DNA of 63,990 bases, the filler included, from Stramenopiles sp. TOSAG23-2 (Eukaryota): assembly GCA_900128395.1 (NCBI GenBank). It is 4 parts of 4 records of this genome, joined end to end, with 100 filler letters (N's around TTAATTAATTAA, not from the genome) between each part and the next. Parts side by side here need not be neighbours in the genome. Positions count along the whole stretch, not along the records: positions 49,668 to 63,990 come from LT649763.1; 3 more parts are not named here. One strand, given 5' to 3'. Both the position numbers and the translations under genes were made by a program. This document shows, piece after piece, positions 49,668 through 63,990 of the stretch. The notes under the pieces are model-generated. The model saw only the letters and a list, made by a program, of their open reading frames with translations, had not been told where the DNA came from and ran no database searches. The first letter of the stretch is position 1. Every line of letters begins with the position of its first letter.

Positions 49668-50090
49668 GTATATAGGCTATTAAGTATAGTTTATCAACGG
49701 TATGATTTAAGGATAATCAAGTGTTATTTAAGGACAGTAAGGATAAAGATAAATTGATGGATATGAGCAGGGTTCCAATTTATCAACGCAATTTTTTTGT
49801 TTGTTACCAGTTATGCTCTCAGGAAGTCCCATTACCAATCAAACATTGACACACCATTGGACACCTTAGACATCCGGGAATAACTGGTATAAGAAGTGTT
49901 ACCATCCGCAGTAACATATTGTAAAATATTAATAATTTCAAATTATTAATAATATCAAATTTAAATCATACACCTTACTTGAATTTTACCGCATCATAAT
50001 ATATATTAAAACGTGTCTTTAAATATATATTAGCACACGACACGAATACGGTAATAATTTATGTTTTTGAAATAGGCAAAAATTATTATC

Positions 50091-50714
50091 ATGACAACAT
50101 TAACTTCTAATACCACATCTCAAAACGTAACAAATTGGTGTTCTGGACACGGCGAATGTCTCACTAGTAATAACGCAGTGTGCGAGTTTAACTGTACGCG
50201 ATGTTCAAATTATGAATTTTGCCAAACGGCGATGCCTGCTATTACTTTAAATCATAATCTTGATGGTCATTGCATAAATTGTGATGTGCTCTGTATACGT
50301 TTGGAATTTAGAGATACAAGTGGAGCATGTGCTGTTTGTCTTGAAGAAAAGGGCAGAGAAATGAAGTTTCCTTCCTGTACTCACTGGTTTTGTACCGATT
50401 GTATGCGTGTAATTTTACTAGGTAAAAATGAAGAGGAATATCATTTAAGTCCTGTTCCATATGGATGTCCTCCCTGCCCCAATGGATGCGTTAATCCAAC
50501 AAGAGGAAGACAGTGTAATTGTTTTGAATGGGACAATGGGTGGGAAGAAGAAGGGCCATTAGGTCCAAGGTTTCTTTGGGAACAAAGTAATTCTGTTGAC
50601 GTTCAACGATGGAGCCGTGATGAAAGTTTGTCTATACAACATGGTGAAGGGACAGCATCATCTTATGGTTCAAATACGTGTCCAATATGTAGAAGCGAAA
50701 GTGAGCTTTTTTGA
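50091..50714 (+). CDS. RING-finger (C3HC4-type) protein with Cys-rich insertion
   Basis: CAVC...CTHWFCTDC...(insert CPPCPNGC)...CPICR. Confidence 0.8.
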   Translation: MTTLTSNTTSQNVTNWCSGHGECLTSNNAVCEFNCTRCSNYEFCQTAMPAITLNHNLDGHCINCDVLCIRLEFRDTSGACAVCLEEKGREMKFPSCTHWFCTDCMRVILLGKNEEEYHLSPVPYGCPPCPNGCVNPTRGRQCNCFEWDNGWEEEGPLGPRFLWEQSNSVDVQRWSRDESLSIQHGEGTASSYGSNTCPICRSESELF

Positions 50715-50837
50715 GCTCATTTTTTAGTTTAAATTTACAATATATTTGTAACATTTTGTAATTTAATGTAAAATTATACAACTGTAGTTATTTATTATGT
50801 TGTTTAATAAAATAATAACCTCTTCACTTTCACTCTG

Positions 50838-51600
50838 ATATATAAAGAATGGAGAGAAGATAATATTCTTGTTCAATACTATTTATATTATAATTAATTT
50901 TTGTGTTACGCAAATATGGAATAAATTTATGTGTATTCCAATGCTATTCCCCTGCTAATAGTTTTGATAATATGTAAAATCAAAACTATTTTGTAGACGG
51001 AGTTATGATTTTGATAAAAAATCAAAAGAGCCAAGCAAACTTATTTTTATTAGTGAATAAAAATTATTATATCTTTATATTTAGTCTAATATATAAAAAA
51101 TGGAGAGATTAATACATAGTAATTTCATAGTAGCAAAAGCAATTTTGGAATATATTTGCGTTTCCAATGCTATTCAGCTGCTAATAGTTTTGATAATATG
51201 TAAAATCAAAACTATTTTTTGATAAAAACTCAAAAGAGCCAAGCAGTAACTAATTTTTATTATAAATAAAAATAATTATATCTTTAATTTTAGTCTAATA
51301 TATAAAAAATGGAGAGAAAATAAATTCTTAATTTAAAGCTGTGTCTATTTTAATCCATTTTTGTTTTGCGCAAATCTGGAATATATTTATTTGCTGTTCC
51401 AATGCTATTCCCCTGCTAATAGAATAGATAAATTATTAAAAAAAGCAAAAATATTCCTGTGCTCAGACGTGTGCGTTTCCAATGCTATTACGGCGTAATA
51501 GTTTTGATAATTTCTAAAATCAAAACTCTGTGTTATGATTAAAAAAAAAATCAAAACACCAACCACGGTGGAGTTATGAAAAAAAAATAAATCAAAACTC
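50838..51600. repeat. Array of 3-4 imperfect ~210-250-bp repeats built from conserved palindromes
   Basis: TTCCAATGCTATT at 50936, 51162, 51397, 51477; TATATAAA.AATGGAGAG at about 50839, 51090, 51299; GTTWTGA-N11/12-ATCAAAA six times. Confidence 0.9.
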
Positions 51601-51705
51601 ACTCTACATCATACCTATTTCACGCATTTCTCTTTAACAAATATAGAAACAAAATACTTAAACAAACCAATAGAAAACAATACTTTTGTATAAATATAAT
51701 CAACA

Positions 51706-52584
51706 ATGAATTCTTATGAAGCGTTAAATGAGAAGCCAAAGAATTTTTATGGAAAGCTGTATCAATTTGTAACTTATTTATTAGACAAACCGCGAGACGA
51801 AAGGCATGTGCGATCTTCAAGCAAAGATGAAAAGCAAAAGAAGATGTTTTACTTTTACAATAAAATTAAAAAGCTAGAAACGTTTACCAATATACCAGAA
51901 CCACCTGTAGATAATGTGACGATAGAAGGTCATACGATAGTTTTAACAAATAAATCCGCAAAAGAAATTGTTGAAGAAATTGTTGCCGCGATTGTGCCAA
52001 CGAAAACGTCCAGAAATATTGGCGTGGCGATGAAAGACGTAAAGGATAGGAAGAAACCTAACGATGTGTTTATCACTCCGCTGAAGCTGGCAAAACTTCA
52101 CATAGATATGATAGAGGCAAAAGAAACGGATGTATGGCTAGACCCTTGTAGAGGAACAGGCAATTACTTTAACCAATTTCCAAGCAAATGTAAACGACGA
52201 TGGTGCGAGATAGAAGACGAAAGAGATTTTTTGACTTACAGAGGCAAAGATATTGATGTTATTATAGGAAATCCTCCCTACAGTTTGCTAGACGCATTTT
52301 TTGAAAAAGCCGTGAAGCTGAAGCCGCGTGTAATAAGTTTTTTAATTGGGATAATGAATTTTACAGGCAAACGATTTGATATGTTAAAAGAAGCAGGTTA
52401 CAAATTGCGTAAGATTCATTATTGTAAAGTGGCTGCGTTTGTAGGAACGACTACTATTTTTGTGTGGGTAAAAAATGAAACCAGAGACACGATTGTTACG
52501 TGGGGCAATAGGAAATGGGAAAGTGATGATGTATATAAACAGAAGAAGGTGAAGCGTTTGGAACGTGAGAGAAGAAAAAGCTGA
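51706..52584 (+). CDS. DNA N6-adenine (amino) methyltransferase
   Basis: Motif X NDVFITP, motif I WLDPCRGTG, WCEI...RDFL, catalytic motif IV IIGNPPYS (gamma-type order). Confidence 0.9.
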   Translation: MNSYEALNEKPKNFYGKLYQFVTYLLDKPRDERHVRSSSKDEKQKKMFYFYNKIKKLETFTNIPEPPVDNVTIEGHTIVLTNKSAKEIVEEIVAAIVPTKTSRNIGVAMKDVKDRKKPNDVFITPLKLAKLHIDMIEAKETDVWLDPCRGTGNYFNQFPSKCKRRWCEIEDERDFLTYRGKDIDVIIGNPPYSLLDAFFEKAVKLKPRVISFLIGIMNFTGKRFDMLKEAGYKLRKIHYCKVAAFVGTTTIFVWVKNETRDTIVTWGNRKWESDDVYKQKKVKRLERERRKS

Positions 52585-52950
52585 GCAAACGCAAATAAAA
52601 TGCGATAGATTACAAATTATTTTGTAAATGTCTTTTTGTAAATGTCTTTTTGTATGTTTATATTTATTGCGCGTAATAATAAAATAATATCTTTTCCGTC
52701 CAGTCTCTATTAGCAGGTAAATACCATTGTTACAGGGTGATAGTATAGGTATCTTACTTGATTTATTTTTTTTTGGATACAAAGAACTAAGAAATAAATG
52801 AATATTGAATTGAACAAACCCAAACAAACAACTAACAGAAAAGTGTTTCCTGTGACGATAAATAATCAAAAAATTTAAGTTATACAAAAATTTATAAGAA
52901 GATATTTATATTCAACTAAAACCGCAAACTATTTTAAACATTTTATTACA

Positions 52951-53853
52951 ATGGCTTCTTTAGCGTCAGAAAATAATACTCCCGGCAATTCCCCGAACAA
53001 ACCTACAAGATCAAGAGCCGTGGGTGGTAAAAAAAAAGCTGTATGCGATGTTTGGCAAAAAGGAAAACAATATAAAACAGAACAATGGATAAAATTTGTA
53101 ATTGATTTTATTAAAAACAACCCGAAAAAGATGCCATTAGTTAACCCGACGATACCGGCTAGTCCAGGTTTTAAGGCACACGTTAAAAAAGAAGACGCAT
53201 TCCAATACAGTATATGGAGTTGGATAAACAGGGAAAAAAACAAATCTGAAAAAAGAGACGCGATTATAGCAGCTTTCAAGGCACAACTTCCTAAAAAAGA
53301 TATTGAAGCTTGGTTACCGCAGCTCTTTAAAAAAAAAAAAACTGAAACAGGTAAACCTATTTACGACGGAATTAAAGATGTTCTCATATGGATGGGCGAA
53401 GAACCTGGTGCTTTACCTAGTTTAGACGACAGGGATGAAAGAAACGGGATTAAAGATACTAAAGTCTTTCAATTTATGTATAGGACTGAATGGACGGAAA
53501 AAAGACAAAGCTTGTTTAAAGAGAAATTTAACAAGAAATATGGAAGCGTAGCTTTCTCTATATACGACAAATTCTTTCATTATTTTCATATAGCTAAATC
53601 AAACAAACTAACAATGGAGGACAACAATGATTTAAAAACGAAGCCAAAAACGAAGCCAAAAACGAAGCCAAAAATCAAAAAATTGAAGAAGATAAAGATG
53701 TCACCAGAAAAAATGAAGGAACTAAATGCCCGCATTAAAAAGAAAAAGCAAGGAATGTCTTCCGGAAGTGAAGGTAACAAGAAAGTATCTTCAACCGAAA
53801 AGGAATTAAAGAGAGAAGTGAAAAAAGTTGGAAAAGCTACATTGCCACAATAA
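52951..53853 (+). CDS. Hypothetical Lys-rich protein
   Basis: 300-aa ORF with KTKP x3 repeat; no family recognised. Confidence 0.75.
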   Translation: MASLASENNTPGNSPNKPTRSRAVGGKKKAVCDVWQKGKQYKTEQWIKFVIDFIKNNPKKMPLVNPTIPASPGFKAHVKKEDAFQYSIWSWINREKNKSEKRDAIIAAFKAQLPKKDIEAWLPQLFKKKKTETGKPIYDGIKDVLIWMGEEPGALPSLDDRDERNGIKDTKVFQFMYRTEWTEKRQSLFKEKFNKKYGSVAFSIYDKFFHYFHIAKSNKLTMEDNNDLKTKPKTKPKTKPKIKKLKKIKMSPEKMKELNARIKKKKQGMSSGSEGNKKVSSTEKELKREVKKVGKATLPQ

Positions 53854-53963
53854 AAGTGCCTACGAACATTAAAAACAAATGACAAAAGTGGGGGAGTCAA
53901 CTTAAAAGTTAAAGTATATATTATCTATTTAGTTATTTTATATTTCAAGTGTTTTATGCGCGT

Positions 53964-54026
53964 AATTTTCACATAGGCACAGCAAGGAAAATTTCTCCGC
54001 CATTGAATTTTAGCATAGGCACAGCA
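53964..54026 (+). promoter_or_regulatory. Direct repeat CATAGGCACAGCA x2 with 42-bp spacing upstream of ORF 54179
   Basis: Copies at 53972-53984 and 54014-54026, each preceded by AATTTT. Confidence 0.45.
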
Positions 54027-54178
54027 CTAATTATACCTCTATTTTTCAACATTCAAAACATTTATATTTTCAATACGCACCCTTTTCTTTTTCAAAAACT
54101 ATAAGCATTTTCAAACACGCATAACCGATATTATTTATCAAGCAAACATAAAGTTTCATTGTTTCAAATCACAACAAA

Positions 54179-55315
54179 ATGAATCATAACAAAATCAATC
54201 ACAACAAAATAAATATGTCCGCAAAACAAAAAGAACAAGCAAAAGCTAAATTCATAGCCGTCTTTGGCAAGGCACCACCGAATAGGTTTGCTGGCGATTT
54301 CAAGTGGCTAACTAAGAAAATTGAAGAAAGTAACAAAGCACAAGCTATGCCACCTCATACACCGGGCACGCATAAAAAGGTAGTTCCTAGTGCTCCTAGA
54401 ATGAACATTGGTTCTAGCAGTTCCGGTGGAGGCAGACCCAAAGCCGGCAACAACAAGTGGGTTGAAATGCTGAAGCAACGCGCCGGTTCCCCTTCCGATG
54501 AACAAGTAGAAAAGTTTAAAGATGCATTTGGGCTAAACGGAAAAGAAAAAACTGTGTCCGATGAAGACTTTTTAGAAATGGCGCAGTGGTCTTCAGGGCA
54601 AAAGAAATCCGCTGGCAAAATACTTCAACTATCATATCCAAATCTGAAAAGAGAGAGTGATGCGTTGGATGCTAAAGTTCAACAAACGATTCAGTTTCCG
54701 CAGCTAAACCAGCAACCAAAACTAAAAGCAGACGTGACGAAAAACCTTGTCAATTTAATAGAAGTGCTGGAGTGTGCTCCACGATTCCAACAACAAGAAT
54801 TGAGAAATCAAGTTGCTGAAGCATTTAAGCTAATAAGCCAAAAGAGAAACGAGGGCTTTATGTTGGCACAGCGAGCTTTAATATCTCATAGCGAAGGTTC
54901 TGTCAAAGCTAAAGAAGTTCAAGAGCACAAGAAAAAAATTAAATCTTTGGATAAACGCATAAAAATGTTCCGAACAAGTTTACAGCAGGTAAAGCAAGCC
55001 GATGATAGCGATGACAGTGATGACGAAGACAATACGCAACATTTTCAAAAGCAAATCAATGAGGCTGAAGAAAAAAAGCGTTTGCTTCAAGAAGCGCACG
55101 ACCTAGCGGTTGGAAAACAAACGTTAAAACGTAAAAGAACGGTATTTGACACCAAAATCACCAAAAAAGCTAAATATATGGACGAATATGAGCACCGTGG
55201 TTTGAAAAAAAAAGCCAATAAACACCCGGAACAAGAAGAAGAATCCAACGGCGACTCAGCAGACATTGATGGAGGCACCAGTTTTGTCTCTAAACTTACA
55301 TTTGGCTTATTGTAA
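54179..55315 (+). CDS. Hypothetical coiled-coil protein
   Basis: 378-aa ORF; small N-terminal helical motif FGKAPPNRFAGDFKWLTKKIEE and C-terminal coiled coil. Confidence 0.8.
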   Translation: MNHNKINHNKINMSAKQKEQAKAKFIAVFGKAPPNRFAGDFKWLTKKIEESNKAQAMPPHTPGTHKKVVPSAPRMNIGSSSSGGGRPKAGNNKWVEMLKQRAGSPSDEQVEKFKDAFGLNGKEKTVSDEDFLEMAQWSSGQKKSAGKILQLSYPNLKRESDALDAKVQQTIQFPQLNQQPKLKADVTKNLVNLIEVLECAPRFQQQELRNQVAEAFKLISQKRNEGFMLAQRALISHSEGSVKAKEVQEHKKKIKSLDKRIKMFRTSLQQVKQADDSDDSDDEDNTQHFQKQINEAEEKKRLLQEAHDLAVGKQTLKRKRTVFDTKITKKAKYMDEYEHRGLKKKANKHPEQEEESNGDSADIDGGTSFVSKLTFGLL

Positions 55316-55436
55316 GTTAAAGTTTTGCGTTTACGTTGTCCAATCTGATGGAATTTTGATTAAATTATTTTTATTTGCGTGTTTATTTTATATTTATACT
55401 TAACTATTATTACACTACATATATGATAGGAATATA

Positions 55437-55577
55437 GTTTTGATTTTTTTTAAAATCACGCGCTAATTTTTATACTACTATTGATTTTAGCTGTAAATCA
55501 CAGCAACGAGTTTTGATTTTTTTAAAAATCATAATCCACCACAACACCAAGCCTGTGATATTTTGTAAAATCATAAT
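55437..55577. promoter_or_regulatory. Second cluster of four TGAT-N10/11-ATCA palindromes
   Basis: Sites at 55437, 55478, 55510, 55553; 55508-55540 is an inverted near-copy of 51567-51600. Confidence 0.7.
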
Positions 55578-55706
55578 TAATTGATTATTAAGTATTAATT
55601 GATGACACCAAAAAGATACGCAAGTTGGTATACACGAATATAACAAAAACAGAAACAAACCAAGAAACGAAAACAAAACAAACAATTTTTTACAAAAAAT
55701 CAACAA

Positions 55707-56333
55707 ATGGAAATGGAAATTACATATGAAAATGTTAAAGCGAGTTTTGGAACTACGTTGCCAATACTGGTAATATTATATATGGCTTACACGTATATAA
55801 ATAATACATTTTGTGAAGACGATCACGGACAATTTTTTTGTTTGCTATTAGATAAAATCAAAGACAAAAACATAGAATGGATAATAAGTTTGTTGTTTGG
55901 TTTATCAGCGCACTTTTCTTATACAAGACGATTTTTTAAAAGTAAAGAAAGCTTTAGTGCTGAAGAGTTAAAAAGCGATAGACTTCAGCTATTTAGCCGT
56001 ATGACGATGGATATTTACGTGTTTAAAACGCATGAACTACCAGAACATAATGGCATCTATTTTGTGTATGAAGAAGATGTTGAACCCTACATAACACGCG
56101 AGGATAACACAGTGATAAAAAAGTGGGGAAGAAAGTTAGAAACCAAATATTATGATTACGATTTTATCCAAACGTATGCCGCCGCACAAAGGTATTTAAG
56201 GGGCGATGCTGCCACGGAGGAAAGTGTGGTAAAAGACTACAAAGCACGAAAAGAACGCCACGGAACTGCGAAAAAACAAAGGGTAAAAACACGAGTTGCG
56301 AAGAGACGTAGTAGCACGCCAAATAGACGTTAA
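55707..56333 (+). CDS. Hypothetical protein with two predicted hydrophobic segments
   Basis: 208-aa ORF; TTLPILVILYMAYTYI and IEWIISLLFGLSAHF. Confidence 0.75.
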   Translation: MEMEITYENVKASFGTTLPILVILYMAYTYINNTFCEDDHGQFFCLLLDKIKDKNIEWIISLLFGLSAHFSYTRRFFKSKESFSAEELKSDRLQLFSRMTMDIYVFKTHELPEHNGIYFVYEEDVEPYITREDNTVIKKWGRKLETKYYDYDFIQTYAAAQRYLRGDAATEESVVKDYKARKERHGTAKKQRVKTRVAKRRSSTPNRR

Positions 56334-56372
56334 TGAATTCAAGCACAGAAAATATAATATCACCAAATATAT

Positions 56373-59300
56373 ATGGAAACGATAAAGACCTTTTTCATCC
56401 AATGTAATAGAGAACTTTCTCAGATAGACGGGGATGATGACCCCGATTTAAATTCACTTTGGACTACTAATCTTGGAACAGACGGATTTCAACTCCAGAA
56501 AGGCGATATGGTGTATTTAGATAATGCTTCATTACAAGTCATTGGTAGTAGCGAAAGCAATGAAACAATGGAATTTACAGGCGACAATCAAGTAGTCAAT
56601 GGAAGGTCTCAACCTTTCACAGATAACCGTGTGTTGGTAGAATTTGGTTATACGCTGAATCAGAATTTAAATCAAGGTCCGTCCGGTTATAGTTGCGCTT
56701 TGCCAATGTGCTTACCGGGGTCCAATTATTTATCCAACGCTCAGCAAATTCAGGTCAATAATGGCAGTTACACGGTGACTCCTAGCGTTGGATTTAATTT
56801 CCAAGGAAACAATAATTACATCATATACGGTTTTTTAAATGAAGTTGATACATTTTATAATCACTTTGTATCTGGCGAAGGTATTAAAACGCTATACCTA
56901 TGTAACACTAGCGATACTATTGATGCTTCCGGCGTAGGAATTAATCCTGGTGCCGCTAGTTTTAAATGGAAAAAGGGGCAAAACGTTCAATATATCCCAG
57001 AAGATGATGAATATATAACATATACATTTGGTCCAATTGACACTTTTGATGTCAGTAGTGGGAGAATAACTGTAACGTTTGCTACGGATTCTACTGGAAC
57101 GTATCCGACCATTGTTGACGATACTGCCGTTCCGAATCCCGCATTTTTGGGGCGAATTGCTGCCTCCGTTACCTATCCTCAATCTAACTTAGGAATGGGT
57201 CTCTTTAATGCTTCAAATAATAGTGGCTCTACAACCGATAATGGGAGTTATTTCTACGATATGACAAAAGAATGGTTGAGTTCAGATGGTCCGAGAGGTT
57301 TTAGAAACAAAAACCGAAGGCAAGGTTTTGATAATTTACCCTACCAATTTGTGAGAAACGACTACCAAGGTTGTCAAGTAACACCAAATTCTATGAAAAT
57401 GAGTCCGCGACTTAAACCAATGACGTCATTTTGCTTATTGGATATTAAAAATAATTTGACTAACGTTAATGATGTTGCCGTTGAACTTTCCGAGAAACTA
57501 CAGCAAGTAAATCCAGTATGGGGGAGCCAAAAGGCAGTTATTCAATATTTAAAAGAAAAAAGCAAAAAAAACAAAGGAAACAACATTGTCCCATATGTTC
57601 AAAGTTTAGGTTACCAACCTGGGAGTGTTTTTGGTAGAGCTACGTGGAATACTGTAGCGAAACTCTTTACTTCCAATACATTAAAATGCCAGCCAGCGAA
57701 TTTACAATTGGGACAAGACAAGATTAATGACGTGGATATAAACAATACATTAAATAATGACCCCGACGGTTCTAATTATCTTCATTCAGGGACTCAACCT
57801 TCCGAATATCCAGATTATTGGAATAATCAGATTTATGGGAATATGGCGGTTCAAAACATTTACCGTGCTATGGCAGGAGATACCATAAATAGATTAAAAG
57901 TTTGGGATGGAAATATAGTGGATGATTTGGGGGTGATACATTTGGAACGAAATATTCACCGAGTTTGTTTGTTAAACACATCTATAGCGACTCACGGTGT
58001 ATCTATTGATGTCTCCGGAGAGACCGTAGATATTAGTGGTAGTTATATTCCCGAAAATGGTTGTTTATTTACGAATATACAATATACTGAGGAAAATATA
58101 AAAGATATAGCGGAAGCCTTTAAAACAGCAAGGAGTTACAATGGAGATTTTAAAACGTGGGACGAACAGTTAAAAGATAAAGATAAATGGTTTTTTCAAG
58201 CAGATTGTGGGATGACCAATGATTATTCTTCAAACCCAACTGCTTTTGCGACAGATGCGTGGAAATATGACCCTGCCCGATATGTTCCAATTCAACCACC
58301 GTGGATAAATACATTTCCACCTGCTGCTAATCCTGCCACAAATCCAGATGGCATAGGTAGAAATGTAAGTTTAATATGTCCGAATATGAGTGCCCAGGGA
58401 GTAGGAGATGATGAAATATTGGCTTCTGGCTTAGGAAAAATTAAAATTAAAACGCAATATAATCCAACATATAAAAGTATACTATATGACCATAATGATA
58501 CTGTTTGTAATGTTGATGTAAATAGTGACGTAGTAGATATCACTTTACCTGAAGCAAATAACGTTGGAGCATATCCATATAGATATACCGACATTTCTGG
58601 TAAAAAACATACCTTTGTTTATTTTCTTAGCCAACAAACATATGATGTGTCAGCGAATGGAAATAATCCTGCGTTTGGTCAGGTTGAATTACTCCAGCTA
58701 ACATGGGGAGATTTGTTTGGATATTCTTTTGCGGCATTGGATAACTATAAAGTGGTTCCAACAAATGGAGATAAAAAACGTTTTAGATTAATGGGTAATT
58801 TGGATTTTAAATATGTTGAAAACTGGAGTAATTTTATTGGAATAGGCGCTGCGAATCCGAGTATTCAATATAATAGTCAAACAAACAAGTTTCAGTTTGG
58901 TAATATGAATACGAATGTTTTTGTTAATAGTGTGCTTGGCACTGCGAGTGCTCAACTTGGAGAGCAAATTTGTATTATAAACCAAGACCTTTCCGCAAAT
59001 GAATTAATGAATAGCTATGTATTAATTGGAAACGATGTAATATTATTGAACCAGACAAATTTAGGTATACAAGCCGAACAAACTGGAATATATATATACA
59101 AGATACACTTGCCAAGCAAAAAATGGAAAGAGCCAGATGATATTGATTTAAATAGTTATTGGGACAACAGTAGTATGGAAGCGACAGAACGTAATCACGC
59201 AAAAATTTTGGAAAACACGATAGAAGCGACAGAGGAGAATTTTAGCAAAACTTTATTTGGGCGATTAGGATTCACTTACTATGATTTGTATCCACGATAT

Positions 59301-60089
59301 CCAGGTAATTACGGTAACCGATATACCTCAGAGTCATTCAACAATGAAAAATATCCTGAAGCGTCTACACACTTAGTGAAAATGGATAATGTGTTGAACA
59401 CTGCAGCAAATCCGAGTTTAAATTTATTTTATGACAAACTTTCAATATATAGCGAATACAATGGAACAATTCAATATGGTTTAGGTAGTATGAATGGCAT
59501 GCCTGAATTTGTTCAAACTAGCACTGATTTCTTAAATGCAAACAATGAAGCGAGTTTATCACAATGCAGAGTCTTCAATATTGTAAGTGATATTGTTCCT
59601 AGTAGTTTTAATAATGGTGAAGGAGTTACAACGAATACTTTATATCAGCTAAGCAAATCATACACATCTGGTAATTATATCTACGGTGGTGGTTCAGCTG
59701 GCTATCCTGTTTATAATCCACGCACAGTGACAAAGGTGAAGATTGAAGTAAGGAACCCAAATACCAATGCATTAGCAAAAATATCCCCTTCCTCCTCCAT
59801 AACTTTCCATGTAGTAAGAAAAGTTGTTATACCAATTGATATTCCTCCTTCAATGAGTAAGGCATCAAAAGAAGATGACAATAACGATGACGAAGAGGAA
59901 TCATTAACAAAAGCTGTGGAAAAAACAAACAAATCTGTGGAAGCGTTAGTAGAAGAAGAAAAACAAGACAATATATCTATGGATGCGTTGATTGATAAAT
60001 TGGGAACATATTTGGATGTTGTAAAATCTGAGCAAGAAGAAGATGCAAAGCCTGAAGCAATGCCAGAAATTAAACCAGAAACTACTTAA
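56373..60089 (+). CDS. Large virion structural protein, putative minor capsid (penton-like) protein with long insertion
   Basis: 1238 aa, Asn/Gly/Thr/Tyr-rich and beta-prone; N-terminal IQCNRE...WTTNL...LQKGDMVYLDNASL and C-terminal FNIVSDIV...SKSYTSGNYIY...VTKVKIEVRNPN...SSITFHV resemble split single-jelly-roll pentons (pattern recall only). Confidence 0.55.
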   Translation: METIKTFFIQCNRELSQIDGDDDPDLNSLWTTNLGTDGFQLQKGDMVYLDNASLQVIGSSESNETMEFTGDNQVVNGRSQPFTDNRVLVEFGYTLNQNLNQGPSGYSCALPMCLPGSNYLSNAQQIQVNNGSYTVTPSVGFNFQGNNNYIIYGFLNEVDTFYNHFVSGEGIKTLYLCNTSDTIDASGVGINPGAASFKWKKGQNVQYIPEDDEYITYTFGPIDTFDVSSGRITVTFATDSTGTYPTIVDDTAVPNPAFLGRIAASVTYPQSNLGMGLFNASNNSGSTTDNGSYFYDMTKEWLSSDGPRGFRNKNRRQGFDNLPYQFVRNDYQGCQVTPNSMKMSPRLKPMTSFCLLDIKNNLTNVNDVAVELSEKLQQVNPVWGSQKAVIQYLKEKSKKNKGNNIVPYVQSLGYQPGSVFGRATWNTVAKLFTSNTLKCQPANLQLGQDKINDVDINNTLNNDPDGSNYLHSGTQPSEYPDYWNNQIYGNMAVQNIYRAMAGDTINRLKVWDGNIVDDLGVIHLERNIHRVCLLNTSIATHGVSIDVSGETVDISGSYIPENGCLFTNIQYTEENIKDIAEAFKTARSYNGDFKTWDEQLKDKDKWFFQADCGMTNDYSSNPTAFATDAWKYDPARYVPIQPPWINTFPPAANPATNPDGIGRNVSLICPNMSAQGVGDDEILASGLGKIKIKTQYNPTYKSILYDHNDTVCNVDVNSDVVDITLPEANNVGAYPYRYTDISGKKHTFVYFLSQQTYDVSANGNNPAFGQVELLQLTWGDLFGYSFAALDNYKVVPTNGDKKRFRLMGNLDFKYVENWSNFIGIGAANPSIQYNSQTNKFQFGNMNTNVFVNSVLGTASAQLGEQICIINQDLSANELMNSYVLIGNDVILLNQTNLGIQAEQTGIYIYKIHLPSKKWKEPDDIDLNSYWDNSSMEATERNHAKILENTIEATEENFSKTLFGRLGFTYYDLYPRYPGNYGNRYTSESFNNEKYPEASTHLVKMDNVLNTAANPSLNLFYDKLSIYSEYNGTIQYGLGSMNGMPEFVQTSTDFLNANNEASLSQCRVFNIVSDIVPSSFNNGEGVTTNTLYQLSKSYTSGNYIYGGGSAGYPVYNPRTVTKVKIEVRNPNTNALAKISPSSSITFHVVRKVVIPIDIPPSMSKASKEDDNNDDEEESLTKAVEKTNKSVEALVEEEKQDNISMDALIDKLGTYLDVVKSEQEEDAKPEAMPEIKPETT

Positions 60090-60114
60090 AAATATAATCT
60101 TACTATATATGTAT

Positions 60115-60327
60115 ATGGAAAGCATTGACAAATTAATGGAAAAAGCATGAATGTATGATGATTTAATAAATGATTTGAGACAAGAAATTAAAATTTTTGA
60201 TGAGTTAAAAGCAAAAGCAATGAAAGAATGGGCAGGGAAAACAGACCTAAAAAAGTTAAACAAAAAAATTAGGAACTGCAAGTATTATTTAAAACGAAAA
60301 GCATTGAAGCAGCAACAGCAGCATTAA
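60115..60327 (+). pseudogene. Small basic helical ORF interrupted by TGA at 60148-60150
   Basis: MESIDKLMEKA*MYDDLINDLRQEIKIFDELKAKAMKEWAGKTDLKKLNKKIRNCKYYLKRKALKQQQQH*; TATATG start context shared with neighbouring genes. Confidence 0.55.
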
Positions 60328-60343
60328 GTAATATTAAGATACA

Positions 60344-60491
60344 ATATGTCTTAACATTTCTGAAAAGTGTCTAAATGTCTAAACATCTTCAATTTTCACA
60401 AACTATTCTATATATTGTTTCTTATAAATACTTTGGTAATTTCTTAGACATTTAGATGTTTAGACAGTTTTTGTAGCACATTAAGACATAT
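60344..60491. repeat. Imperfect inverted repeat with tandem octamers (ori-like)
   Basis: ATATGTCTTAA..TGTCTAAA-TGTCTAAA-CATCTT on the left; CTTAGACA-TTTAGATG-TTTAGACA..TTAAGACATAT on the right. Confidence 0.75.
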
Positions 60492-60534
60492 ATTAGTTAA
60501 ATGACTTAAAAAAATAATATTATCAATATATATA

Positions 60535-62874
60535 ATGACAAACAATAGTCACAGAGCAACAGATTTTGCGGAAAAGCATAAAATTAATTACCACCCAATT
60601 AATTTAAAGTTAATAAAAAAGTATAAAAACAACAGCAGTGAATGTGAGAAAAATGAAGATGAAAGTGACAAATTAGTTAAGAAATTACAGGGTGAAAAAG
60701 ATGGAGGAATGCCAAAACTGACTGATTTTAGGAATAGAAAGGAACTGATTGAAACAAAGAAAGTTTTAATGAAACAAGGCTATCCATTTTCTCATATAGC
60801 ATTTGAAACATCAAATATTTATCAAATAGACATAGATTGTGTAAATTATCACCAAATGTTTAGAGACATTATGAAACATTCACCATATACTAAATCAACC
60901 ACTAAGGAATTTGGACATCATATTTTTATTACATCTGCTAATTTTACACCTCCTAAAGATAGGCTTCAATTTAAAAAGAAATATGGGAATGCAGTGGAAT
61001 TATTGTGTGGTCAATGGAGTTGGTGTAAAGCTGATGCAAAAGTATATAATGCTGAAAAACCAATTGTAGACATTCCAAATTTAGAAGAATATTTAGAGAT
61101 ATCTACATCAAAATGTAATGACATAGAACCATTAAATCATTTAAAACCATTCAATTATCTGTTAATTAAAGATAATATGGAACAGATAAAGAAAGAAACA
61201 CTAGAAGATTATCAAAAAGCTGTAGGGATTATTCTAAAATGTGCATCTACTGGAGATGAAAGAATATATAAAATACTTCAACAGGTTATGTCAAATGCAG
61301 ACAATTACAACAATGATTGGGTAAAGAAAAAGTGGGATGAATATGACCTGATAAAACACACATCATATCATTTTGACTTTGATACACCACAAGATGTGGA
61401 TACAAAAACTGAATATGAAAAACCAACAGAAATAACAAATACATCCATAGCCGAATATTTATTAAATGTGTATGGTAACAACTTTATTTATGCTGGAGCC
61501 ACAAAAGAATTGTATTATTGGAATGGAGATATATGGGAAAGAGATGTAGAAGGGTATATCCATAGGCTGATTGAAAAAAATATTTATTTGGAACTAACAA
61601 AGTATGTGGTAACATTAAATGATTGTAAAGCAAAAGACAATATTATAAAAAAGGTTTTATTGCTCCATAATGAAAAGTTTAGACAAAATACCTTGAAGTC
61701 CTTTGTGCAAATGTGTAAAATGGAAAGATTAGTGAATGTAGCAATGAACTACAATGATGTGCAAAAACACTATGTTCATTTTAAGAATGGGTGTGTTAAT
61801 CTAAAAACTGGCAAGTTTAGAAAACAAACAAAAAAAGATTATGTTTCTGTAAAATTAAATTATGATTACAAGGTTCCAACAGACAAGGGTGTTGTGGAGC
61901 AAATGAAAATTTTAGAACCAATCATTAAACAACTACAACAATGTAAGCAGCAATATGATTTAATGATGATGTGGAAAGCTTACTGCTTAACTGGTGAAAC
62001 AAAAGAACAAAAATTTATGATGGCTATTGGTTACAGCACCAGAAATGGAAAATCCACATTGTTGAAAATACATTCAATCACCTTTCCAATCTATACAGCT
62101 AAATTTTCCAACAACTGTTTCACAAAAAACAATTCTCAATCAGACAGGGATTTTTCCAAGCTTATTAATAATCCTATTAGATTAATTTTCATTGAGGAAT
62201 TAGATGACAAACCCCAAGATGTAAATAAATTTAATGATGTTGTTGATGGTTATAGTATAACAATAAGACAATTATACAAAGAAAAGGTGAATATAATAAT
62301 TCATGCAAAGGTGGGAACAACAAGTAATTTTGACCCAAATTTTTCTAATAAAAACAAAGGGATTTTACAAAGACTGGTAGTTCAATTTTTTCAAAGCAAA
62401 TTTGTTGTAACAGAAGAGGAATTAGAGCAAAAAAAAAAAGATGGCTACAAAAATGTGTATATTGGACACCAGGACATAGATAGTTTGTTTCTAAACAACA
62501 ATATGAAATTAGCTTACTTTTATCTGTTGCTACCTTATTGTAAGAAGTATTATGAGAACAGGTTGATAATACCAAAAGAAAACTTAAAGTTTAGCAATAA
62601 CATTATTGAAGATTATGATGAATTCAATGAAGTGTTTGAAAAAAACTTTGAAAAAAAGCCAAACGAAAAAACAAGCAAAGTTGATGTTCAAAATAGGATA
62701 AAGGAAAACAATCAATTTAAAGATATGCAGTGGAGAGATATTTTAAAACAAATGAAACAAAGGGGCTTTACATATAATAGTCAAATGTGCAAACAAGGTA
62801 AAAGAGGATTCTTTATTGGTCTAAAATTAAAGCTGTATGATGTAGATGAAATTGAAACAGATGACAAAGCTTAA
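60535..62874 (+). CDS. D5-like primase-helicase (primase-like N-domain, D5_N, superfamily 3 helicase)
   Basis: QIDID and GHHIF primase-like motifs; LYYWNGDIWE, HFKNGCVNLKTGKF (D5_N); Walker A GYSTRNGKST, Walker B IFIEELD, motif C TTSNFDP. Confidence 0.9.
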   Translation: MTNNSHRATDFAEKHKINYHPINLKLIKKYKNNSSECEKNEDESDKLVKKLQGEKDGGMPKLTDFRNRKELIETKKVLMKQGYPFSHIAFETSNIYQIDIDCVNYHQMFRDIMKHSPYTKSTTKEFGHHIFITSANFTPPKDRLQFKKKYGNAVELLCGQWSWCKADAKVYNAEKPIVDIPNLEEYLEISTSKCNDIEPLNHLKPFNYLLIKDNMEQIKKETLEDYQKAVGIILKCASTGDERIYKILQQVMSNADNYNNDWVKKKWDEYDLIKHTSYHFDFDTPQDVDTKTEYEKPTEITNTSIAEYLLNVYGNNFIYAGATKELYYWNGDIWERDVEGYIHRLIEKNIYLELTKYVVTLNDCKAKDNIIKKVLLLHNEKFRQNTLKSFVQMCKMERLVNVAMNYNDVQKHYVHFKNGCVNLKTGKFRKQTKKDYVSVKLNYDYKVPTDKGVVEQMKILEPIIKQLQQCKQQYDLMMMWKAYCLTGETKEQKFMMAIGYSTRNGKSTLLKIHSITFPIYTAKFSNNCFTKNNSQSDRDFSKLINNPIRLIFIEELDDKPQDVNKFNDVVDGYSITIRQLYKEKVNIIIHAKVGTTSNFDPNFSNKNKGILQRLVVQFFQSKFVVTEEELEQKKKDGYKNVYIGHQDIDSLFLNNNMKLAYFYLLLPYCKKYYENRLIIPKENLKFSNNIIEDYDEFNEVFEKNFEKKPNEKTSKVDVQNRIKENNQFKDMQWRDILKQMKQRGFTYNSQMCKQGKRGFFIGLKLKLYDVDEIETDDKA

Positions 62875-62931
62875 CTATTTTTTACAGAAAAGAAATACTT
62901 TAGTAGAAAAATATATATCTAATAAAATTAT

Positions 62932-63609
62932 ATGAATACTTTTAATCCAAATGCAAATGATTTGTTTCAAAATGTGAAGATGGTCATCTCCAAAACGAAG
63001 AAGCCTAGTAAACCTGCTAACATATGTGCTATGCCTGCCAAACCTGCGAAAAAGTTAAAGAATAGCAATATTTTTTTATATCCTAAATGTAAAATGGAAG
63101 AACCTTCCAAACAAGAAGATGTTGCTGTAAAGGCAGAAGATGTTAAAGAACCAGAAACACCTCCACCTACGTTGGATGCTCCAAAACATGATGTAGGTCA
63201 ACAAGGGAAAGATAAGAAATTGCGAAAAAAAAGGACAGACCATAATACACCAGAACGCTTACAACAATTAGCAAAAGCATGCAAAAAAGTGTTAGCAAAA
63301 TGCAGGGAAAATTCTAAAAAACAACACAAAGAAAAGGAAGAAGCCCTAAGGAAAAAGTATGCTCCTCCTGCCCCACCTGTGCCTAAAGCAAAACCGAAGC
63401 CAAAATATACCAAAGAACAAGTGGAAGCTAGTATGTTTAGTATGTTAGATAAGTGGGATGATAGATGTCAAATGAGAAAACGAAAAGCTAAGGAAGAAGA
63501 AGCAAAAAAAGCAGCACTTGAAAAAAAGAAACCTTCAAGTTCTGATAGAAAAATACCATCTTTGTATAAAACAAATCAACAAACAAATTGGGATAGTTTG
63601 TTTTATTAA
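62932..63609 (+). CDS. Hypothetical Lys/Pro/Glu-rich basic protein (true start may be MEEP near 63094)
   Basis: 225-aa ORF with GKDKKLRKKR and LQQLAKACKKVLAKCREN. Confidence 0.7.
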   Translation: MNTFNPNANDLFQNVKMVISKTKKPSKPANICAMPAKPAKKLKNSNIFLYPKCKMEEPSKQEDVAVKAEDVKEPETPPPTLDAPKHDVGQQGKDKKLRKKRTDHNTPERLQQLAKACKKVLAKCRENSKKQHKEKEEALRKKYAPPAPPVPKAKPKPKYTKEQVEASMFSMLDKWDDRCQMRKRKAKEEEAKKAALEKKKPSSSDRKIPSLYKTNQQTNWDSLFY

Positions 63610-63990
63610 TTAAAATTGGACTTTGATTTGTTTTGTATCTAATTTCCCAAATTCTGAAACATACTTCTCCGGTTTTAATTCTTCAGTATGAACATTATTT
63701 TTCAATACAACTATCCTTGGACTTTTTTCCTTGAGTTTAATGAAGTAATCAAAATGCTTTGATTTGCAACTAATAGAAGTTAATTTATAAAACACATCTT
63801 CTTCATACTCTTTGATGGTTGATATGTAATCAGGTTGAATCTTGTTGGGTAACACTTCTGTTCTTTTTTTCTTCTTATAGTAGTAACAAGTTGTTATACC
63901 ATAATCATTGTCTTCTGTCTCAAAACAATGTTTCCTTATCAAATGACCGGGTATGAAGTATTCTTTTCCTTCATAAAAAAAAAATGTAAT
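63610..63990 (-). CDS. Hypothetical protein, 5' partial (frame open to the window edge)
   Basis: The frame extends beyond 63942 as ITFFFYEGKEYFIPGHLIRKH...; its stop codon directly abuts that of the convergent ORF. Confidence 0.65.
   Translation of the reverse strand: MTFFFYEGKEYFIPGHLIRKHCFETEDNDYGITTCYYYKKKKRTEVLPNKIQPDYISTIKEYEEDVFYKLTSISCKSKHFDYFIKLKEKSPRIVVLKNNVHTEELKPEKYVSEFGKLDTKQIKVQF

Follow-up and report, generated by a model that had tools for sequence, protein, structure and literature searches.

The stretch of DNA analysed here (the window) comprises 63,990 nucleotides of the Stramenopiles sp. TOSAG23-2 assembly GCA_900128395.1, obtained from a marine single-cell sample, and consists of four contigs joined by N runs. 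Contig 4 (49668-63990, LT649763.1) carries a putative viral element that falls into a left arm of normal CpG content (49668-59986), used as internal comparator, and a CpG-depleted right arm (59987-63990), which reaches the contig end, so that its natural right limit lies beyond view. The left arm encodes a putative N6-adenine-type DNA methyltransferase with a GNPPYS motif (51706-52584, plus strand), which matched PHROG 799 (DNA methyltransferase, E 9e-25) and weakly, under the cut-off, Pfam N6_Mtase (E 5e-4). A conserved open reading frame (ORF) of 1238 aa (56373-60089, plus strand) follows, whose stop codon lies at the CpG edge. Homologs of this large ORF are P0015 (64%) and P0016 (24%). Its fold is unassigned: no match was obtained in Pfam, PHROG or PDB, Atlas hits scored below 0.9 and count as leads only, and an AlphaFold 2 model of residues 1-1190, based on a 7-sequence alignment, was discarded as its mean pLDDT (predicted local distance difference test) score was 25.

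The right arm begins with a small ORF (60113-60329, plus strand), which is a doubtful gene. The in-frame TGA claimed for it in the initial annotation is present at 60146-60148, after the ATG at 60113. In a low-depth variant contig of sequencing run X7, positions 60133-60328 of this ORF are replaced by 16 other letters. Downstream, an imperfect nested palindrome with GTCTAAA-type motifs (60333-60502; inverted repeats I1, I2, I3 and I8) abuts the helicase gene on its upstream side. The small ORF and the palindrome are bracketed by the only two zero-mismatch copies of the promoter-like 15-mer ACTTAAAAAWATAAT in the whole window, both on the plus strand, at 60084-60098 (14 nt ahead of ATG 60113) and at 60504-60518 (16 nt ahead of the helicase ATG). 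The helicase gene itself (60535-62874, plus strand) is an intact ORF of 779 aa and forms the core of the depletion. Its product was matched by Pfam D5_N (PF08706; E 5e-15; score 56 bits, cut-off 22) and, slightly below the cut-off of 27.6, by DUF5906 (E 2e-5, 25.9 bits). GYSTRNGKST and IFIEELDD were found by eye and are taken by us to be the Walker A and Walker B motifs. With a D5_N domain and a P-loop helicase core, the predicted protein fits a D5-like superfamily 3 (SF3) primase-helicase. It is followed by a gene for a basic protein of 225 aa (62932-63609, plus strand), which is partly depleted (7 CG), and by a conserved small ORF on the minus strand (63610-63990; 2 CG) that is cut by the contig end. 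The viral nature of the element is suggested by the D5-like helicase together with conserved ORFs recurring on contigs of at most 27.5 kb (up to 29 kb in the more distant P0016 family); the 0.1-0.22 size-fraction label in the source name of one distant helicase relative was also counted toward it. No capsid gene was identified, and an exact look-up of the 8 proteins of the window in the protein collection found none present.

A sharp drop in CpG was confirmed in the right arm of contig 4. Observed/expected (o/e) ratios in 1-kb bins were computed, while all other counts were done by hand from the printed sequence. Successive bins of 50001-60000 contained 24, 19, 34, 29, 30, 33, 44, 34, 26 and 22 CpG (295 in all; o/e 0.77-1.39), while those of 60001-63990 contained 2, 1, 2 and 8 (o/e 0.11, 0.05, 0.11 and 0.31). 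Hence 13 CpG were found in the latter region compared to about 82 expected from base composition (counts divided by o/e). By eye, these 13 sites were located at 60295, 60569, 61452, 62664, 62996, 63047, 63170, 63223, 63256, 63385, 63481, 63671 and 63948. The last CG of the left arm lies at 59986, in agreement with the claim that CGs persist up to about 60000, and no CG is found between it and the next one at 60295. The edge is thus confined to 59986-60295, just past the stop codon of the 1238-aa ORF. Density was about 17 CG/kb across 59400-59986, followed by a single CG within the next 580 bp; the fall from about 17/kb to about 1.3/kb takes place inside 300 bp. Exactly 3 CG were counted in the 2340-bp helicase gene and 35 in the 879-bp methyltransferase gene, as the initial annotation had it (3 and about 35). 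Arginine codons behaved likewise, with 0/21 CGN in the helicase compared to 5/6 in the 1238-aa ORF (300 codons read). The depletion also spans three ORFs besides the helicase and the non-coding segment 60330-60534 (205 bp), which is entirely devoid of CG.

The loss of CpG was accompanied by a gain of the two products of CpG transition. TpG o/e amounted to 1.33-1.72 in the right arm versus 1.01-1.25 in 56001-60000, and CpA o/e to 0.98-1.38 versus 0.99-1.20, while GpC o/e did not shift between the arms. By hand arithmetic, TpG and CpA each rose by about 12/kb, in line with the loss of about 25 CpG/kb. The comparison of CpG, TpG and CpA ratios suggested earlier thus gave, in 1-kb bins, a collapse of CpG with both TpG and CpA higher on the right. 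A CpG o/e far below 1 with reciprocal excess of TpG and CpA and steady GpC is the pattern by which decay of 5-methylcytosine (5mC) is recognized. Avoidance of restriction sites was dropped as a candidate because CpG is depleted in all contexts, and general deamination damage or APOBEC-like editing because CpG alone is affected.

The direction of change was read from close relatives, whose codons were inferred from proteins, while those of the window were read directly. A protein search with the helicase yielded P0001 (91% identical) and P0002-P0005 (30-36%). Compared to P0001, the helicase carries 60 substitutions, namely 23 of CpG type, 18 other transitions and 19 transversions or multi-step changes. 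The CpG-type changes, written from P0001 to the window, include R>Q at residues 217, 392, 431, 466 and 612, R>H at 128 and 645, R>C at 752, P>L at 62, 272 and 767 (always CTG) and A>V at 409 (GTG), and 11 of them are first-position G>A changes, each right after C. Not one reverse change, with a CpG in the window and its decay product in P0001, was observed. Independently of the P0001 codons, 11/15 first-position A-for-G changes follow a C, at a C frequency of about 0.12. The four outgroups P0002-P0005 all have Arg at 431 and 612 and Ala at 502; in addition, residue 128 is Arg in P0002 and residue 409 is Ala in P0003. Arg is therefore ancestral at the tested sites and the state of the window derived. 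Positions 431 and 612 are even invariant across all other homologs, yet they are Gln in the window. The loss of Arg to Gln, His or Cys, together with the absence of CGN Arg codons from the helicase, is the residue expected of a mutational drive. Several motifs had been predicted to revert to basic ones if TG or CA were changed back to CG. FRKQTK to FRKRTK and GILQRL to GILRRL both match the 91% homolog, and all 3 changes from AKACKKVLAKCRE to AKAREKALAKRRE were found in relatives. For KHDVGQQGKDKK, which reads KRDVGERGKDKK or KRPVGKRGADKK in relatives, two of the three changes held and the first Q did not, as relatives have E, K or D at this position and not R; relatives carry KRDVG.RGKDKK.

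A corresponding polarity was observed in the 225-aa ORF, for which a library-wide search retrieved P0008 (84%), P0009 (50%), P0010 (39%) and fragments. The 35 substitutions relative to P0008 comprise 12 CpG-type changes in the forward and 0 in the reverse direction; all four first-position A-for-G changes (4/4) follow a C, and the 7 retained CGs all lie in unchanged residues. Pooled over both genes, 35/95 amino-acid differences are single-step changes from CpG to TpG or CpA, all forward and 0 reverse. As a control for the left arm, fragments of the large ORF were compared (P0043, 93%; P0044, 97%; P0045, 87%; and P0046), after trimming the ends of P0045 and P0046 where the alignments diverge, apparently through frame changes at contig ends. 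Here the 23 usable substitutions included 3 forward (V135, Q144 and M1004) and 2 reverse changes (D888 after aac, and R940, cgt), so that the control, though small, is balanced, versus 35:0 on the right. Protein divergence outside CpG was 37/779 in the helicase and 9/159 and 3/98 in large-ORF fragments, and this similarity mildly favours a shared history of the two arms.

More distant relatives of the element are not poor in CpG. Five loci (L001-L005), found with the smaller alignment A4, encode relatives of the 225-aa ORF with 42-47% identity. L003 contains 353 CG in 11277 bp (GC content 0.353, o/e about 1.0) and the other four contain 24-28 CG/kb, so CpG poverty is not a general property of the family. 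In L003 the counterpart of the 225-aa ORF contains 20 CG in 684 bp versus 7 in the window, and the small minus-strand ORF, which is 59% identical to L003:5110-5721 and L002:7369-7980, has 2 CG in the window versus 7 in a relative. Close relatives thus lacked the Cys, Gln and His residues of the window, more distant ones had normal CpG, and the changes towards the window were enriched at CpG, so that neither of the two outcomes named beforehand as speaking against decay was observed. No match was obtained when viral contigs were scanned with the helicase, the large ORF and P0015, metagenome contigs with the helicase, or genome contigs with alignment A3. A helicase-family alignment retrieved only L006 and L007 from the viral contigs, which were not used (20-21% identity). 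Six ORFs of L003 and one of L002 had no match in Pfam, nor had four L003 ORFs in PHROG.

Gene order in these loci differs at the CpG edge. In L001-L004 (64% relatives), the large ORF is encoded by the opposite strand, with its start abutting the 225-aa ORF and without an intervening helicase; after the 225-aa ORF come the small ORF on the minus strand and an ORF with a P-loop motif (GGKSS). Since gene order differs there in these relatives, the coincidence of the edge with a synteny breakpoint supports its reading as a module junction, and the mosaic of modules offered as an alternative in the initial annotation fits this arrangement.

The junction was also recovered from sequencing runs. Run X1, which is very small (about 10 million letters), contains 94% of the words and is probably the source run. 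Its independent assembly produced a 6898-bp contig over 54853-61750 with 0 differences, and among the 14 X1 contigs placed on the element, all at least 95% alike, neither arm was represented by a second-strain copy. In X7, a run of another study, a 9162-bp contig aligns collinearly with 55698-63795 (about 93% identity, 581 differences). The two arms are therefore probably physically linked, and an origin of the junction as an assembly chimera is improbable. The seawater metagenomes X2 and X3, with contigs over 60153-62917 and 56766-57548, contain a form with P0001-like gaps, which differs at 112 positions over 2433 bp (4.6%) and by 30 gap letters. No RNA runs were listed among those holding the element. 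Some extra X1 contigs share only 57258-57568, or 60510 onward, with the element and then continue in unlike sequence, at a depth of 20-22 versus 8.9. These may represent related elements, further copies or chimeras formed during amplification. In the X7 totals, substitutions from window to relative amounted to 135 A>G, 67 G>A, 84 T>C and 74 C>T. With both arms pooled, the ranges were 135-149 A>G, 84-92 T>C, 67-98 G>A and 74-78 C>T, which suggests a strand asymmetry at odds with the near-equal rise of TpG and CpA.

These comparisons support a loss of CpG from the right arm by transition to TpG and CpA after its split from close relatives. Decay confined to this arm, as proposed in the initial annotation, is thus the part of that proposal that stands, on the 35:0 polarity, the outgroup arginines and the CpG-normal relatives. 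As its most likely cause we favour methylation-linked CpG mutation of this arm, to which we give an even chance. The decay took place in this lineage only, after about 5% divergence from the seawater-metagenome relatives, and extends from the stop of the large ORF over the small ORF, the palindrome, the helicase, the 225-aa gene and the minus-strand ORF to the contig end. CpG in this segment may have been methylated at cytosine-5 while the element was integrated or latent in a eukaryotic nucleus, and the resulting 5mC may then have been deaminated to T. The left arm would either have stayed unmethylated or have become linked to the decayed one afterwards, through recombination at the module junction around 60090-60535. 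A spectrum restricted to CpG and to transitions, with both products raised, is that expected of 5mC deamination, and the replacement of conserved Arg by Gln, His and Cys is more readily attributed to mutation pressure than to selection preserving the protein. Since mutation limited to CpG yields stop codons from CGA only, the open frame of the helicase is no proof of a working gene.

Several observations weigh against methylation-linked decay. From the replacement classes, about 41 ancestral CpGs were estimated for the helicase, of which 3 are left (about 93% lost; a partly inferred figure). At a total divergence of 4.6% (112/2433), this loss is at least 50-fold above background. Passive 5mC decay in mammals proceeds 10-15 fold above it, and as the rate exceeds this value, both active hypermutation and selection against CpG stay alive as explanations. 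Furthermore, no host-virus junction was seen in contig 4. Contigs 2-3, the putative host, have a CpG o/e of about 1.0-1.1, so that methylation would need to be targeted, and these contigs may be either protist host or giant-virus DNA. Finally, X9, a run of the same study labelled with another organism, contains a related element (0.14 of the words), which would be expected of a virus that is free or was ingested just as much as of an integrated one.

The speed of the loss and the very sharp edge at 59986 would be accounted for by active hypermutation resembling repeat-induced point mutation (RIP), in which C is changed to T at CpG over a duplicated right arm in one or a few bursts while the unique left arm is spared. 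We consider this unlikely. Near-total loss in the helicase despite low background divergence (112/2433) speaks for it, and the extra X1 contig that is common only from 60510 on, with other sequence upstream, may be the context of a second copy; the arm was not seen duplicated, though, and that contig may equally be an amplification chimera. A precedent in CpG context exists in Pucciniomycotina, where, in the part of the study drawn on here, the sites are TpCpG (PMC3318451), but no TCG bias is apparent in the window on either strand, and surviving as well as decayed sites include A-CG-A. The depletion is also weaker in 63001-63990 (o/e 0.31), and CpA went up, not down. Neurospora RIP converts CpA to TpA, which does not fit the latter. 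RIP is to our knowledge not known outside fungi, and a literature search for it beyond fungi turned up no report. A region-targeted defence of this kind in a marine protist, whether RIP-like or due to a methyltransferase or deaminase, that acted in a burst on the replication module of a resident virus would be an improbable find. If true, it would be the first such hypermutation defence outside fungi, legible in environmental sequence, and a single burst would have wiped more than 90% of the module CpGs while the remaining element diverged by a few percent.

Selection would offer another route to a step at a gene boundary. CpG might have been selected against in transcripts of early replication genes through a host factor that senses foreign RNA or DNA rich in CpG, and the depletion indeed begins at such a boundary, peaks over one transcription unit (the helicase), whose frame is open across 779 codons, and includes the small ORF and the helicase with their common promoter-like 15-mer. 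Gene-limited suppression driven by ZAP has been described for IE1 of human cytomegalovirus (HCMV), as far as the consulted part of that report goes (PMC7498042). Selection that preserves the protein should favour synonymous changes from CGR to AGR, however, while 35/95 replacements are of CpG type and include the otherwise invariant Arg 431 and 612, and the non-coding segment 60330-60534 is without CG as well. We know of no CpG sensor in protists, and on balance this explanation seems doubtful, to the same degree as hypermutation. That no decay took place, and that the right arm is a module taken over from a donor that was always poor in CpG, would agree with the position of the edge on a synteny breakpoint, where the inverted large ORF of L001-L004 abuts the 225-aa ORF, and with the frequent exchange of replication modules among such elements. 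It is largely refuted, and thus very unlikely, as relatives with 84-91% identity and unchanged gene order retain Arg, Pro or Ala at the 35 sites, in agreement with the outgroups, and as the 225-aa and minus-strand ORFs are syntenic everywhere but depleted only here (7 vs 20 and 2 vs 7 CG). Least probable of all is an artefact, either a chimera of two strains within one contig or damage by deamination that became fixed when a single cell was amplified. The very small X1 is typical of an amplified single cell, and such data are prone to chimeras. Yet both the X1 reassembly over 54853-61750 and the X7 contig over 55698-63795 span the junction, the 14 X1 contigs at least 95% alike leave no second-strain arm visible, and damage would strike C in every context, whereas CpG alone is affected.

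Methylation-linked decay of the right arm can be compared with known systems. CG hypermethylation of integrated viral DNA has been reported for protist hosts, as with giant-virus insertions in Amoebidium; the portion of this study considered here describes methylation and makes no mention of deamination or CpG decay (PMC11244446). As in host-methylated endogenous viral elements and endogenous retroviruses, CpG is lost, TpG and CpA are gained, the resident copy is derived and relatives are unaffected. Unlike in these, the effect concerns one arm of an element of about 14 kb or more, with an edge of less than 300 bp and open genes, and the loss was very fast relative to background; integration and methylation are, moreover, what we infer here. 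An integrated algal giant virus (punuivirus) is, according to the sections of the report drawn upon, covered by 5mC over part of its genome, with regions marked by N6-methyladenine (6mA) being refractory (10.64898/2026.10.09.758095). An effect on part of the genome is common to both, with the 6mA-marked and the transcribed regions free of 5mC in the punuivirus, but there methylation was measured in a giant endogenous viral element (GEVE) of hundreds of kb, whereas a mutational footprint is seen here. As 6mA regions of the punuivirus escape 5mC and the CpG-normal arm of the window encodes an adenine-type methyltransferase, it is tempting to speculate that this enzyme might protect the left arm.

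HCMV IE1, the major immediate-early gene, shares with the window a CpG depletion limited to a gene inside an otherwise CpG-normal DNA virus; in the part of that work used here, ZAP-mediated selection in vertebrates is given as the cause and the protein is kept (PMC7498042), whereas in the window conserved Arg has given way to other residues, in an element hosted by a marine microbe with no known CpG sensor. The RIP-like process of Pucciniomycotina shares C to T hypermutation in CpG context with sharp limits but acts, in the sections consulted, at TpCpG (PMC3318451), while neither a repeat, a TCG preference nor a fungal host is in evidence here. A literature search, supplements aside, did not reveal any protist virus described as carrying a CpG-depleted segment with sharp limits. 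If the footprint has been read correctly, sequence alone would indicate that an uncultured marine virus lineage passes part of its existence in the nucleus as DNA exposed to a host process directed at CpG, and this process would act on, or be recombined into, a single module. Sharp steps in CpG o/e within a genome, combined with the polarity from Arg to Gln, His or Cys relative to close relatives, could then be used to search uncultured protists for latent or endogenised viruses and for defences based on cytosine methylation, and the case would be one in which passive 5mC decay, active hypermutation and anti-CpG selection can be told apart.

Outside contig 4, contig 1 (1-16494) has a GC content of 42-51% and a CpG o/e of 1.1-1.6 and looks bacterial, which points to a mixed assembly; the GC content of the other three contigs is 22-38%. 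Contigs 2-3 (16595-49567) contain long uninterrupted ORFs, among them a deoxynucleoside kinase, a YidC/Oxa1-like, an ankyrin-repeat and a C1orf109-like protein. Within the left arm of contig 4, an ORF for a RING-finger protein (50091-50714) is absent from the X2 and X3 contigs, which skip 49930-50771, and three further contig 4 ORFs were without matches. Between the RING-finger and the methyltransferase genes lies a non-coding array of about 900 bp (50790-51600), in which a unit of about 230 bp is repeated 3-4 times with conserved blocks of 57 and 84 nt and small GTTTTGAT...ATCAAAAC palindromes, and whose role could be that of an origin or a regulatory sequence.

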